Positions 1 through 3,795 of a stretch of DNA of 3,795 nt are shown in pieces. The first letter of the stretch is position 1. The number at the start of each line of letters is the position of its first letter. The DNA comes from Enterobacteria phage P-EibD. The notes beneath the pieces are model-generated. The model was given only the letters and a program-made list of their open reading frames with translations, was not told where the DNA came from and made no database searches. Position numbers and translations under genes: made by a program. The DNA lies in sequence record AF151675.1. One strand, given 5' to 3'.

Positions 1-23
1 GCGCGCATACTGACAGACAGGAG

Positions 24-611
24 ATGAACATGAATGTGGAAAAAATAAGCAATCCGCAATGGGCAGATAAAGAGCACACTGCTGTCAATTGCATGGTGAA
101 GTTTGAGCACATTGAGCAGGCGGTTCCTTTCACTGCAACAGCCAGCGATACCGAAGCATACGGGCGGGATATTTATGCCGCTTGTCTGAGAGGAGAGGCC
201 GGTGAAATTGCAGAATATGCACAGCCATCCATCAGCCCGGAAAAAGCCAGAGAACTCAAAACCGCCGGGATCAACGCCTGGCGTAATGCGATGGAAGCGG
301 CGAACTACACGTTTGAGCACAATGGGCGTAAATGGGACTACGGGAAGTCAACGCAGACGCGTCTTGAGCCGTCGGTGGCGGCAGCGAAAGCGGGGAAACT
401 GCCGGAGGCGTTTTTCTGGACGGATGCGGACAATAATGACGTACCGATGGACGCTGAAACACTGATTGCTCTGAGTGCTGCTGCAGAGCAGGCGATGTTT
501 ACCAAAGGGATGGAAATCCACGTCCGGCAGCGCACCATGAAGAAAGAGCTGGAAAAGCTGACCAGTGCGGATGAGATACTGGCATACAGGGTTGGCTGGG
601 CACAGGAATAA
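24..611 (+). CDS. Hypothetical prophage-associated protein, 195 aa; possibly a tail-fibre assembly/chaperone-like protein, but this is a guess from position only
   Basis: Uninterrupted 195-codon ORF ending TAA 609-611, with enterobacterial-looking codon usage and no N-terminal signal peptide or hydrophobic segment. AGGAG at 19-23 abuts the ATG at 24 and is better spaced (6 nt) for the in-frame ATG at 30, so the true start may be 30. The ATG at 24 overlaps a TGA at 25-27 in another frame (ATGA), which may mark the end of an upstream gene. I do not recognise the protein family. Confidence 0.7.
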   Translation: MNMNVEKISNPQWADKEHTAVNCMVKFEHIEQAVPFTATASDTEAYGRDIYAACLRGEAGEIAEYAQPSISPEKARELKTAGINAWRNAMEAANYTFEHNGRKWDYGKSTQTRLEPSVAAAKAGKLPEAFFWTDADNNDVPMDAETLIALSAAAEQAMFTKGMEIHVRQRTMKKELEKLTSADEILAYRVGWAQE

Positions 612-974
612 CAGATAAAAATATGGGGGAAACATTTCTTTCCCTCATGAACTATTCCTCCTGTAAATATTTCATGTTAACTGAATAGTTAATTTTTTCT
701 GATGTTGTAATTTTGTTCACAAATTACAGTGTAAGCAGATGTGAAACAGCAAGTCTGACTGGGGTAAGTTTTTTCTGATATCTGTTCCGGCGGTGTGGTC
801 GTATGCGTGAGCAGGTATGCCCAGAATAATGTAAGACAAATCCTAAATTTATAAAATTAATTTTTAAATTTATTTTCGGAATATCCTGAAAAAAGCCGTA
901 ATTAATCAGACTTTTTTATGAGTGTGAGGTGTTGCGGCTGATTTGTATACAGATAATTTAACAGGATATCCATA
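612..974 (+). promoter_or_regulatory. AT-rich intergenic control region upstream of the adhesin gene; promoter not pinpointed
   Basis: 363 bp with no convincing ORF. Hand counts give 12 G/C in 841-900 and 14 G/C in 661-720 (20-23% GC), far below the flanking coding DNA. It contains AT-only symmetric motifs at 845-873 and an AGGA (963-966) 8 nt before the ATG at 975. I could not place -35/-10 hexamers reliably by eye. Confidence 0.5.
625..646 (+). terminator. Weak candidate hairpin downstream of the first ORF
   Basis: GGGAAA (627-632), loop CATTTC, TTTCCC (639-644), extendable by G625-C646 and a G-U pair. It is not followed by a T-run, so it is at best a weak terminator. Confidence 0.2.
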
Positions 975-1052
975 ATGAGTAAAAAGTTTACAATGACACT
1001 CCTGTCATCTTCTCTGGCCGGGCTTCTGGTGATGAGTGGTGGAGTGAGTGCG
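975..1052 (+). other. Signal peptide coding segment of the adhesin (26 aa, predicted cleavage after VSA)
   Basis: Basic n-region MSKK, hydrophobic core [16 protein letters not shown], and c-region SGGVSA with small residues at -3 and -1. Confidence 0.65.
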
Positions 1053-2510
1053 CAGAATGGTACATATTCAGTGTTGCAGGATGATTCGCAGAAGAGCGGA
1101 CCGGTTAAATATGGCAGCACCTATGAAGTTGTAAAGACAGTCGATAATGGTAACTTCAGATACGAAGTAAAAGAGAAAAAAAACGACAAGAGGACACTTT
1201 TCAAATTTGATTCAGAAGGTAATGTGACCGTTAAAGGTAAGGGTATCACCCATACACTTCATGACCCGGCGCTGAAAGATTTTGCAAGGACTGCTGAGGG
1301 TAAAAAAAATGAACAAAATGGAAATACTCCACCTCACAAGCTGACAGACAGTGCTGTTCGTGGCGTGTACAACAAGGTGTATGGCCTGGAAAAAACAGAA
1401 ATTACAGGTTTCAGCGTCGAAGATGGGGAGAATGGGAAGGTTTCTCTGGGTAGCGATGCGAAAGCCTCTGGTGAGTTCTCAGTAGCTGTTGGTAACGGTG
1501 CTAGGGCTACAGAAAAAGCGTCAACAGCAGTGGGCTCATGGGCTGCTGCGGACGGTAAACAAAGTACAGCTCTGGGAGTGGGAACATATGCTTATGCAAA
1601 TGCATCTACAGCCCTGGGAAGCGTTGCATTTGTTGATAACACGGCTACATATGGCACGGCAGCAGGTAACCGAGCCAAAGTTGATAAAGATGCAACAGAA
1701 GGTACTGCGTTAGGGGCAAAGGCAACAGTAACAAATAAAAACAGTGTTGCATTAGGTGCTAATTCTGTAACCACTCGTGATAACGAAGTTTATATTGGCT
1801 ATAAAACCGGAACCGAAAGCGATAAAACATACGGCACCCGTGTTCTTGGTGGCTTAAGCGATGGTACGCGTAACAGTGATGCGGCAACTGTTGGGCAGTT
1901 AAACCGGAAAGTTGGTGGAGTTTATGATGATGTTAAAGCCCGTATAACTGTTGAGTCAGAGAAGCAGAAAAAATACACAGACCAGAAGACCAGCGAGGTT
2001 AACGAAAAAGTTGAAGCCCGCACAACGGTTGGTGTTGATTCCGACGGAAAACTTACCCGTGCAGAAGGTGCGACTAAAACTATCGCCGTCAATGACGGTC
2101 TCGTTGCTCTGTCTGGCAGAACAGACCGTATTGATTATGCAGTTGGTGCCATTGATGGCCGTGTCACCCGTAACACGCAATCCATTGAGAAAAACAGCAA
2201 GGCGATTGCAGCCAATACCCGTACGCTGCAGCAACATTCAGCACGTCTGGACAGCCAGCAGCGCCAGATTAATGAAAACCACAAGGAAATGAAGCGTGCA
2301 GCAGCACAGTCTGCGGCCCTGACAGGTCTGTTCCAGCCGTACAGTGTGGGTAAATTCAACGCCACGGCAGCGGTTGGTGGTTACAGCGACCAGCAGGCAC
2401 TGGCAGTGGGTGTGGGTTACCGCTTCAACGAGCAGACCGCAGCGAAAGCAGGCGTGGCATTCAGTGATGGCGATGCCTCCTGGAACGTTGGTGTGAACTT
2501 CGAGTTTTAA
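975..2510 (+). CDS. eibD: Eib-family immunoglobulin-binding trimeric autotransporter adhesin (YadA-like), 511 aa; paralogue assignment eibD is tentative
   Basis: 511-codon ORF. The N-terminus [29 protein letters not shown] is a typical Sec signal peptide. Residues ~155-276 carry degenerate 14-residue SxAxG repeats typical of a YadA-like head. A neck-like motif [21 protein letters not shown] is followed by a long heptad-rich stalk (aa ~311-440). The C-terminus [15 protein letters not shown]...[34 protein letters not shown] is glycine/aromatic-rich and ends in F, as in YadA-type beta-barrel anchors. The length matches what I recall for EibD (511 aa), but I cannot distinguish EibC/D/E/G without alignment. 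Confidence 0.9.
1437..1802 (+). repeat. Degenerate tandem repeats encoding the YadA-like head (about 14-residue SxAxG units)
   Basis: Successive units in the translation: [83 protein letters not shown]. Boundaries are approximate. Confidence 0.55.
2295..2510 (+). other. YadA-type C-terminal membrane anchor (translocator) coding segment
   Basis: The last ~70 residues show alternating hydrophobic/small residue beta-strand patterning and a terminal aromatic residue, consistent with the 4-strand-per-monomer anchor of trimeric autotransporters. Confidence 0.75.
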
Positions 2511-2535
2511 TTGCTGAAGGTGACATGAAGTATGA

Positions 2536-2567
2536 CGGCAGGCGCAGGACTCTGGTCTGCCGTTTTT
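2536..2567 (+). terminator. Rho-independent terminator downstream of the adhesin gene
   Basis: Stem CGGCAG (2536-2541) pairs with CTGCCG (2557-2562) around a 15-nt loop, followed directly by TTTTT (2563-2567); it lies 26 bp after the TAA stop. Confidence 0.55.
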
Positions 2568-2598
2568 CATGGGGCATAAAAAACAGGAAGGTGCTGCG

Positions 2599-3069
2599 AT
2601 GAAGGTGATTCTGGCTACCAGGAACCGCTATCTGGAGTATGGTCTGCAGGCGTTACTGAAGGGGCACAGTGTGATACTGGCGAGGGAGTTTTTCCTGCCG
2701 GAGAACCGCCGTTATATCCCGGACTTTGACGAATCCTGGCTGATAATCAGTGATGGCCTGCTGGGCAGGCTGATGCGCTGTATGTTCCAGGGGCGTCATT
2801 TTCTGCAACTGGATGCGGAGTTGCTCCGTGATGGTGAGCAGATAAGTGATGCCATACACAACGGCGTCTGGACGTATAACAGTGCTGCCCGCCCGCTGAC
2901 GATGTCAGAGATGGTGGTGATGTTCGGTTATGTCTACCGCCAGTCGAGACCCTGCCGCCTTGCCAGTGAAATGGGTATCCACACGAAGACGGTGAATACC
3001 TTTCTGTATACGGGAATGGCGAAAAACGGGCTGTATGGTGTGAGCGTCAGACGGCTTGTTGGTGCCTGA
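2599..3069 (+). CDS. LuxR-type HTH transcriptional regulator with a degenerate receiver-like N-terminus (GadE/YhiF(DctR)-like), 156 aa
   Basis: AGGAAGG at 2585-2591 sits 7 nt before the ATG at 2599. The longer ORF from ATG 2569 starts inside the upstream terminator T-tract with no SD, so 2599 is preferred. The C-terminal LTMSEMVV...LASEMGIHTKTVNTFLYTGMAKNGL fits the LuxR/FixJ HTH pattern. The N-terminal MKVILATRNRYLEYGLQALL...WLIISDG resembles the truncated receiver-like region of GadE/YhiF proteins as I recall them. Stop TGA at 3067-3069. Confidence 0.75.
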   Translation: MKVILATRNRYLEYGLQALLKGHSVILAREFFLPENRRYIPDFDESWLIISDGLLGRLMRCMFQGRHFLQLDAELLRDGEQISDAIHNGVWTYNSAARPLTMSEMVVMFGYVYRQSRPCRLASEMGIHTKTVNTFLYTGMAKNGLYGVSVRRLVGA

Positions 3070-3251
3070 TGGCGGTCCTGCCGGATGCGCAGAATCTTCT
3101 GATAGTTCAGAAGGTGCAGATGATGAATAAAGAGAGATGCCGGACAATCGGAAGAAAACGTTACACCACAGGCGCAATGTGCTTCATGCTGTTTGTGTGG
3201 CTTGGTGGTGTGCTGGCTCTTGTTGCTACAGCTGCGGTGGTAATGCAGTAA
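3069..3251 (+). CDS. Small predicted membrane protein (60 aa from ATG 3069, or 43/42 aa from ATG 3120/3123) with one C-terminal transmembrane helix
   Basis: The ATG at 3069 overlaps the regulator stop (TGATG), suggesting translational coupling. Alternatively AAGGTG (3111-3116) precedes ATG 3120/3123. A basic stretch (KERCRTIGRKRY) is followed by a ~21-residue hydrophobic segment (AMCFMLFVWLGGVLALVATAAVV). Stop TAA 3249-3251. Family not recognised. Confidence 0.4.
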   Translation: MAVLPDAQNLLIVQKVQMMNKERCRTIGRKRYTTGAMCFMLFVWLGGVLALVATAAVVMQ

Positions 3252-3275
3252 AAAAAGGGGAGCAACATGCTCCCC
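3250..3275 (-). terminator. Rho-independent terminator oriented for minus-strand transcripts (possibly bidirectional)
   Basis: Perfect 7-bp GC-rich stem GGGGAGC (3257-3263) / GCTCCCC (3269-3275) with loop AACAT. On the minus strand the hairpin is followed by seven T (complement of A 3250-3256). On the plus strand the hairpin is preceded by the A-tract and followed by GACCAGAAG, which is not U-rich. Confidence 0.6.
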
Positions 3276-3313: not shown

Positions 3314-3388
3314 TTACGTCTTGTCCAGAATATCATAGCAACACTCTGTTGCAGTGATACCGATCGCGATTTTAGCGAATTCCATCAT
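3314..3388 (-). CDS. Candidate small ORF (24 aa, MMEFAKIAIGITATECCYDILDKT); could instead be the body of a small RNA
   Basis: Hand translation of the minus strand gives ATG ATG at 3388-3383 preceded by GGGGA, and a TAA stop at 3316-3314. It lies 37 bp upstream (in minus-strand sense) of the minus-oriented terminator. It is very short and I found no convincing promoter. Confidence 0.2.
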   Translation of the reverse strand: MMEFAKIAIGITATECCYDILDKT

Positions 3389-3431
3389 AAATCCCCTGAT
3401 TTTTAAGCCTGAAGCAGTCAAAGGAATTTCT

Positions 3432-3795
3432 ATGCCCTATATCGATATCACCACGATGCGTGGGATGATGCCGCGCGTTGTGACATCCATGCTGCCCGAG
3501 CATTCCGCTGTACTGGCGGAGGACTGCCATTTCCGGTTTGGTGTTATTACACCAGAACGTCAGATATCCGGGGTTGAGAAAACATTCACAATTAAGCCAA
3601 AAACAATTTTTCATTACCGTGACGATTTCTGGTTTGCATGGCCGGATGTGGTGGATGTGATCCGCAGTCCGATCGCTCAGGACCCCCACGGGCGTATTTA
3701 CTACACTGACGGGCGTTTTCCTAAAGTGACGGATGCGACCATTGCCACAAAAGGGGACGGGAATCACCCGACATCATCGTATCGTCTTGGGATCC
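3432..3795 (+). CDS. Hypothetical protein, 5' partial (first 121 codons; continues beyond the window end)
   Basis: AGGA at 3422-3425 sits 6 nt before the ATG at 3432. The frame stays open to the window end (MPYIDITTMRGMMPRVVTSMLPEHSAVLAEDCHFRFGVITPERQISGVEKTFTIKPKTIFHYRDDFWFAWPDVVDVIRSPIAQDPHGRIYYTDGRFPKVTDATIATKGDGNHPTSSYRLGI), with protein-like composition and no signal peptide. The antisense 131-aa ORF (3372-3767) is Cys/His/Arg/Trp-rich and looks spurious. Family not recognised. Confidence 0.6.
   Translation, partial: MPYIDITTMRGMMPRVVTSMLPEHSAVLAEDCHFRFGVITPERQISGVEKTFTIKPKTIFHYRDDFWFAWPDVVDVIRSPIAQDPHGRIYYTDGRFPKVTDATIATKGDGNHPTSSYRLGI

Follow-up and report, generated by a model that had tools for sequence, protein, structure and literature searches.

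According to the papers cited here and below, Eib proteins bind the Fc part of immunoglobulin (Ig) G and IgA and confer serum resistance (PMC7247748; PMC12511318), and the Escherichia coli strain ECOR-9 carries four of their genes, eibA, C, D and E, which are expressed in static culture (PMC4352079; PMC5450701). EibD is reported to be a homotrimer, as seen from crystal structures and from multimers that are stable in sodium dodecyl sulfate (PMC13534694, PMC5450701). Its passenger is described as lollipop-shaped (PMC12511318), Ig binding has been mapped to its stalk (PMC13534694), and its head is required for homotypic aggregation and for the formation of chains (PMC12511318). The sister records P-EibA (AF151091), P-EibC (AF151674) and P-EibE (AF151676) from ECOR-9 all have the order orf-191, stem-loop, eib, stem-loop, orf-156, orf-60. 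Here, we analyzed 3,795 nucleotides of Enterobacteria phage P-EibD (record AF151675.1), and this whole stretch is called the window in the following. Its central open reading frame (ORF) starts with ATG, extends from 975 to 2510 and encodes 511 amino acids (aa). All coordinates are those of the window, and features lie on the + strand unless stated otherwise.

The ORF at 975-2510 was identified as eibD. An exact-sequence look-up of the 511-aa protein led to the UniRef100 cluster represented by EIBD_ECOLX, "Immunoglobulin-binding protein EibD" (Swiss-Prot Q9MCI8). When all PDB chains were searched, the product was 100% identical to 2xqh_A over query residues 158-418, and 2xzr_A was aligned at residues 381-442, with 100% identity in its EibD-derived part, which begins at about residue 391. 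Both entries are named "Immunoglobulin-binding protein EibD" in PDB. No deviation of the product from the deposited EibD sequence was found, and its identity to the other family alleles was 87% for EibC, 72% for EibE and 43% for EibA. A first-pass annotation, which was made from the letters of the DNA, had named the ORF "probably eibD" because of its 511-aa length and its Eib-like stalk, and had regarded it as a member of a known family and not as a new system. The comparison with the Eib proteins bore this out, as the length is correct, the stalk is identical to that of the EibD crystal constructs, and the sequence is that of the known protein.

The upstream ORF at 24-611 was likewise an exact match, namely to AAF63039.1, "ORF-191D [Enterobacteria phage P-EibD]". 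Based on these two exact matches and on the gene order of the sister records, we conclude that the window is the eibD locus of P-EibD. The best explanation for the ORF at 975-2510, which we hold to be almost certain, is that it represents eibD of this prophage, the allele that was first described in E. coli ECOR-9. In comparison with EibD of ECOR-9 P-EibD no difference was apparent, as the protein and ORF-191D are the same and the gene order is that of the sister records. Nothing was found that contradicts the identification. The gene, the structure of its product, Ig binding and the prophage location have already been published, and the main finding is thus not new. The locus represents a clean positive control, for which the right allele had been named from raw sequence.

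The protein is built as a type Vc trimeric autotransporter, with a Sec signal peptide, a passenger consisting of head, neck and stalk, and a C-terminal anchor. All elements of the YadA-like architecture that had been listed beforehand (signal peptide, head repeats, neck, stalk, anchor and a terminal F) were indeed present. The signal peptide, as read from the sequence, comprises aa 1-26 (975-1052) and has a basic n-region, a hydrophobic core and a cleavage site between VSA and Q. Mature EibD begins at Q27 in published constructs (PMC12511318), and EibC and EibE share the signal peptide with 100% identity. It is followed by the N-terminal domain of the head, aa 27-149 (1053-1421; borders taken from PMC12511318), which is allele-specific and only 59% identical to the respective domains of EibC and EibE. 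The segment between this domain and the stalk (1422-1892) contains five stretches that match Pfam YadA_head (E 2.7e-13) and S/TxAxG repeats within residues 162-262, and it is 100% identical to 2xqh. The coiled-coil stalk, aa 307-452 (1893-2330), is composed of a right-handed segment, a saddle and a left-handed segment, and it is 100% identical to 2xqh and 2xzr as well as to EibC. The YadA-type beta-barrel membrane anchor, aa 453-511 (2331-2507), matched PF03895 over the full model (E 5.2e-16, positions 1-60 of 60) and the YadA anchor structure 2lme (E 2.8e-18), and the protein ends with ...NFEF.

Two results of the domain searches were negative. Pfam YadA_stalk gave no match at E <= 0.01, and the score of the NCBIfam YadA model was 106 bits at a cut-off of 750. 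The Pfam results thus agreed with the expectation for the head and the anchor, but not for the stalk. Neck and stalk were accepted in spite of the missing match because they are identical to the solved EibD structure, and the NCBIfam score far under the cut-off indicates that EibD is not YadA itself. In fact, EibD has the head repeats, the neck, the coiled coil and the anchor in common with YadA of Yersinia, whereas it differs from YadA by its additional N-terminal domain, by its location on a phage instead of the pYV plasmid, and by the binding of immunoglobulin instead of collagen. For EibD, PADLOC yielded spurious coiled-coil matches and nothing else.

Comparison with P-EibC revealed that eibD is a mosaic, the flanks, stalk and anchor of which are as in eibC, while the N-terminal head is different. 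At the DNA level, P-EibC and the window are about 100% identical at 1-1000 and 1700-3100. The identity is 62-97% at 1000-1700, with most values between 62 and 87%, and 62-83% over 1000-1400. The two sequences are unrelated after about 3200; there P-EibC contains the autotransporter gene eaaC after orf-60, whereas the window contains a virion gene. At the protein level, the identity of EibC and EibD is 100% for the signal peptide, 59% for the N-terminal domain, 89% for head and neck, and 100% for stalk and anchor. Differences are also present in the first part of the beta-roll head, and the two proteins are the same from about residue 250 to the C-terminus, that is, in the head end, neck, stalk and anchor. 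As the identity to P-EibC drops only there, the N-terminal head represents the allele-specific part of eibD. The region of about 1000-1700, which comprises the N-terminal domain and the first part of the head, has sharp recombination boundaries versus P-EibC.

In two prophages of other strains, KY173 and PhiR12_3, the whole eib gene has diverged (42-97% identity). The flanks are about 100% identical in KY173 and 81-100% identical in PhiR12_3, and the EibD protein is 73% and 74% identical, respectively. In complete RefSeq E. coli genomes, the eibD-specific N-terminal region was not found above 92.1% identity. The anchors of EibA and EibE are 87-97% identical to that of EibD (EibA 97%), and the region of the stalk motif is common to these proteins. 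In EibA, the beta-roll head is missing and the position of Y388 is occupied by Ala. EibG shares with EibD a bipartite head and the chain-forming phenotype (PMC12511318).

The steps by which EibD would act have been established in published work on EibD itself or on its family. Sec would export the protein with the aid of the 26-residue signal peptide, and the anchors of three chains would build a 12-stranded barrel in the outer membrane. The passenger would pass through its own trimeric barrel and would then fold into the trimeric lollipop, which has the order N-terminal domain, YadA-like left-handed beta-roll head, neck, right-handed coiled coil, saddle, left-handed coiled coil (PMC12511318). 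The stalk would bind IgG Fc, around D387-Y388, and IgA Fc non-immunologically. EibD would contribute to serum resistance, and its head would mediate homotypic aggregation and chain formation. The IgG-Fc residues D387-Y388 in the left-handed coiled coil (nucleotides 2133-2138) are intact in the product of 975-2510. In PMC13534694 the Fc-binding residues of EibD are printed as "D378-Y388". However, residue 378 of EibD is Ala, the Asp beside Y388 is D387, and the equivalents in EibG, D391 and A392, are adjacent, so that "D378" is probably a digit swap for D387.

The function under selection might be a different one. The same molecule could have been selected for aggregation, chain formation and colonisation, or for serum resistance independent of Ig binding, and Ig binding would then be incidental. 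EibD is described to cause chain and clump formation by homotypic interactions of its head (PMC12511318), and a point mutation in EibG separates chain formation from Fc binding (PMC13534694). Furthermore, the fast-diverging part of eibD is the head with its N-terminal domain, and not the Ig-binding stalk. However, the stalk with the Fc-binding motif is fully conserved between EibC and EibD and largely kept in EibA, which fits selection on the stalk. We regard an incidental role of Ig binding as possible, but rather unlikely. A trimeric autotransporter of the Eib type without immunoglobulin binding, resembling the Cla or Yal adhesins, has a negligible probability: non-binding relatives that have recently split from the Eib group do exist (PMC13534694), and diverged YadA-like genes are present at related prophage and plasmid loci, but exact identity to EibD, including the crystallised part and the intact D387-Y388, excludes it.

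The first-pass annotation had also proposed that the immunoglobulin-binding adhesin gene is carried by a phage. Three contigs (L006, L008 and L009) contain the window with 3795/3795 identical nucleotides. In all three it belongs to a short-tailed, Stx-phage-like prophage and lies between tail-fibre and internal-virion-protein genes. The genes are arranged in the order P22-type portal, capsid, SU10 adaptor, 662-aa tail fibre, DUF4376, EibD, ORF-156 and ORF-60, followed by a 541-aa protein, tail tip, Lom, Hok and a giant LPD5 protein. The flanking DNA thus contains phage structural and tail genes, in agreement with carriage on a phage, and phage records contain close relatives of the eibD locus. 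No att site was found inside the window. Positions 1-13 represent the last codons and the stop of the tail-fibre gene (frame-2 stop at 11-13), which encodes 662 aa in the identical contigs (L006 7051-9039, the end of which corresponds to window position 13). The ORF at 24-611, which had been noted as an upstream phage-like ORF, is orf-191D. It encodes a DUF4376 protein (Pfam E 1.7e-19) of the tail-fibre or tail-fibre-assembly class (PHROG 1141, "tail fiber protein", E 3e-79). At the other end, 3432-3795 contains the 5'-part of the next phage structural gene. It is of the internal-virion-protein class (PHROG 17680 and 511) and encodes 541 aa in the identical contigs (L006 12458-14083). Its frame is open to the end of the window, and substitutions fall on codon position 3 of the + frame. 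NCBIfam and Pfam gave no match for this partial gene.

An identical EibD protein was also found in a lambda-like siphovirus prophage (L007), the DNA of which is 99.1% identical over window positions 1-3221. There the order is tape measure, M, L, K, I, J, tail fibre, DUF4376, EibD, ORF-156, ORF-60 and an Eaa/SPATE-type autotransporter, and the prophage adjoins aspS-nudB-yebC-ruvC. Two unrelated prophage backbones therefore harbour the eibD allele together with orf-191, orf-156 and orf-60. Stx phages whose backbone is that of the window (Min27, VT2-Sakai and many others) lack eib, and their match to the window begins only at about 3207. These prophage comparisons place eibD in an exchangeable, hypervariable tail-fibre region of lambdoid prophages, which is used as a cargo site, as in the case of lom.

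A position between tail-fibre and tail-tip genes could be taken to mean that EibD is a component of the virion, i.e. a phage tail adhesin, and not a protein of the bacterial surface that is produced by the lysogen, and two weak PHROG matches of EibD are filed as "tail" (phrog_17426 and phrog_26246). However, a Sec signal peptide and a beta-barrel anchor for the outer membrane are present in EibD, the gene is preceded by a low-GC region and followed by a terminator of its own, Eib proteins have been detected on ECOR-9 cells (PMC5450701), and a related unit of adhesin gene and orf-156 occurs on plasmids without phage genes, so that a virion protein is extremely improbable.

The eibD gene resembles the lambda-type morons lom and bor. 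Like eibD, these are outer-membrane or serum-resistance genes among late or tail genes, with an atypical GC content and an own terminator. A lom gene is located a few kb downstream of eibD in the same prophage. Unlike lom and bor, eibD shares its unit with a putative regulator gene, orf-156. The presumed control region of eibD is the intergenic region 612-974, and it was characterized by its GC values, its folds and blocks that are conserved across six eib-like loci. The GC content is 33% in this region and 43% in the part that encodes the N-terminal domain of EibD, compared to 52-54% in the neighbouring genes. The AT-rich control region that had been claimed is thus real with respect to its composition. 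A strong terminator had also been predicted, and an intrinsic terminator of eibD was found at 2534-2567 by a terminator scan. It consists of a GC-rich hairpin (2534-2564) and a U5 run, with a folding energy (dG) of -27.8 kcal/mol and a z-score of -3.6. Its stem is kept in seven eib-like loci, one of which is a plasmid, and it is annotated as a stem_loop in the sister records.

Several features of morons were thus found for eibD, namely the site between phage late genes, the deviating base composition and the own terminator, and the low-GC upstream region and the terminator fit a moron or lysogenic-conversion gene. Expression of eibD from the lysogen would, moron-like, be independent of the late operon. 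However, a promoter scan revealed no sigma-70 consensus upstream of eibD on the + strand, and the own promoter that belongs to the moron model is thus putative. Eib expression has been observed in uninduced static, stationary cultures of ECOR-9 (PMC5450701), and IbrB or IbrAB are reported to enhance it (PMC7649339). Taken together, the influence of IbrAB, the static or stationary growth and the missing consensus promoter indicate that eibD probably needs activators.

Two palindromes were detected within 612-974, an AT palindrome at 844-872 and TGTATACA at 944-951, in addition to a hairpin (622-649), a CRP-like site (706-721) and a Shine-Dalgarno motif, AGGA (963-966), which is located 8 nucleotides before the eibD ATG. 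The CRP-like site, TGTAATTTTGTTCACA, has one mismatch to TGTGA-N6-TCACA and lies about 270 nucleotides upstream of the ATG. A search of the window with the CRP consensus yielded 2 matches versus 0.24 expected by chance, which is mildly unexpected. A perfect TGTGA-N6-TCACA is aligned to 706-721 upstream of eibA (L003 3646-3661) and upstream of the adhesin gene of PhiR5_2 (L014 4136-4151). The sequence at 706-721 is a candidate for a functional CRP site. At 900-974, several blocks are kept across diverged eib-like loci, among them the perfect palindrome TGTATACA and CATCAGAyTTTyTTTA. The palindrome at 844-872 consists exclusively of A and T and is labelled stem_loop in the sister GenBank records. 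An RNA hairpin at this site is not credible, as its fold is no better than those of shuffled sequences (dG -3.7, z -0.3). For this reason a DNA-level feature is more likely, and the palindrome may be a DNA-level or protein-binding element of the control region. A scan of the window with Rfam yielded nothing at E <= 1.

The gene downstream of eibD, orf-156D (2599-3069), is the only part of the locus that might repay experiment. It was without annotation in every record examined, and its homologues are called "hypothetical protein" at most and originate from E. coli wherever the source organism is named. Pfam and NCBIfam gave no match, PHROG 6585 is labelled "unknown", and PADLOC yielded nothing. 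A literature search for orf-156, orf-191 and ibrA did not retrieve anything relevant. When 1.84 billion representatives were searched with a profile of the ORF-156 alignment, only 37 proteins were retrieved, many of which were fragments, and no canonical LuxR or response-regulator proteins were among them. Thus, sequence alone does not tie the family to known regulators. The alignment has a conserved C-terminal motif, LTMSEMVVMFGY...LA.EMGI..KTVNTFLYTGMAKNGL. When the profile was compared with PDB, only four weak matches were obtained (E 0.05-0.3), and all four were LuxR-family proteins or GerE and were located on this motif.

The AlphaFold model of orf-156D (predicted local distance difference test, pLDDT, 82.7; predicted template modelling score, pTM, 0.76) consists of four beta-alpha units followed by four helices. 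Its top Foldseek matches in PDB were the full-length NarL/FixJ-type response regulators FixJ, StyR, DesR, LiaR, RcsB, VraR and EvgA, with probabilities of 0.9-0.99. Together, alignment and model predict an atypical NarL/FixJ-like DNA-binding protein with a truncated receiver-like domain and a LuxR-type helix-turn-helix. A C-terminal LuxR/GerE-type helix-turn-helix is present in this prediction, with K130-T131-V132 in its predicted recognition helix, whereas a complete receiver domain with the acidic pocket (DD...D...T/S...K) is not. T7-R8-N9 replace the acidic pair, beta5 and its Lys are absent, and only D52 at the end of beta3 is kept. With four beta-alpha units, but neither the acidic pair nor the beta5 Lys, the domain is receiver-like and the protein is not a canonical response regulator. 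The predicted structure therefore suggests that orf-156D is probably an atypical LuxR-type DNA-binding protein that acts independently of phosphorylation. Only 31 nucleotides (2568-2598) separate the U-run of the eibD terminator from its start codon, and expression of orf-156D probably depends on read-through of this terminator.

The loci considered for ORF-156 homologues were L019 3763-5474, L023 3815-5483 and L015 5001-5495. In a lambda-like prophage, a homologue with 68% identity is located after a YadA-like gene of 383 aa, and on Rep3/CcdAB plasmids one with 67% identity is located after a YadA-like gene of 367 aa, the product of which is 60% identical to EibD residues 161-511. A paralogue with 55% identity stands alone beside hpaBC, near a PerC gene, without an adhesin gene. 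The occurrence of ORF-156 homologues after Eib-like genes in a prophage and on plasmids suggests a mobile unit of adhesin and regulator. We tentatively propose that orf-156D encodes an orphan, phosphorylation-independent NarL/FixJ-like factor that forms a mobile two-gene unit with Eib-type adhesin genes in two unrelated prophage backbones and on plasmids. Its targets would be the adhesin gene or genes of the host, possibly reached through the conserved blocks upstream, and read-through of the eibD terminator would allow its synthesis. We consider this proposal as a whole to be unlikely, albeit worth stating. The linkage of orf-156D to adhesin genes or the CRP-like site at its conserved position could help to explain the condition-dependent Eib expression, i.e. 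the effects of static or stationary culture and of IbrAB.

The product of the next gene, orf-60D (3069-3251), is small and has a hydrophobic helix at its C-terminus. The start codon of orf-60D overlaps the stop of orf-156D (ATGA). The protein belongs to PHROG 9340 ("unknown"), and no Pfam or NCBIfam match was obtained. PADLOC yielded nothing for the small ORFs of the window. The 3'-end of orf-60D is kept, unannotated, in the Stx phage Min27 (L010 about 4994-5044), which lacks eib, and orf-60D may therefore be a gene of the phage backbone and not part of the eib unit.

Although an ORF of 131 aa on the minus strand (3372-3767) matches PHROG 24576 over its whole length, it was not accepted as a gene and is an annotation artefact. 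In a comparison with Shigella phage 75/02, codon position 3 of the + frame carried 29 of the 39 substitutions, and 12 of 112 amino acids were changed in the + frame versus 32 of 112, plus a stop, in the minus frame. No minus-strand gene was found that accounts for a GC hairpin at 3257-3275, as this ORF was the sole upstream candidate. The hairpin (dG -15.4 kcal/mol, z -3.7) is preceded by A7 on the + strand and, with the resulting T7 tail, looks like an intrinsic terminator of the minus strand. Its stem is invariant in Stx phages such as Min27 and Stx2_EH0337, while the flanks diverge.

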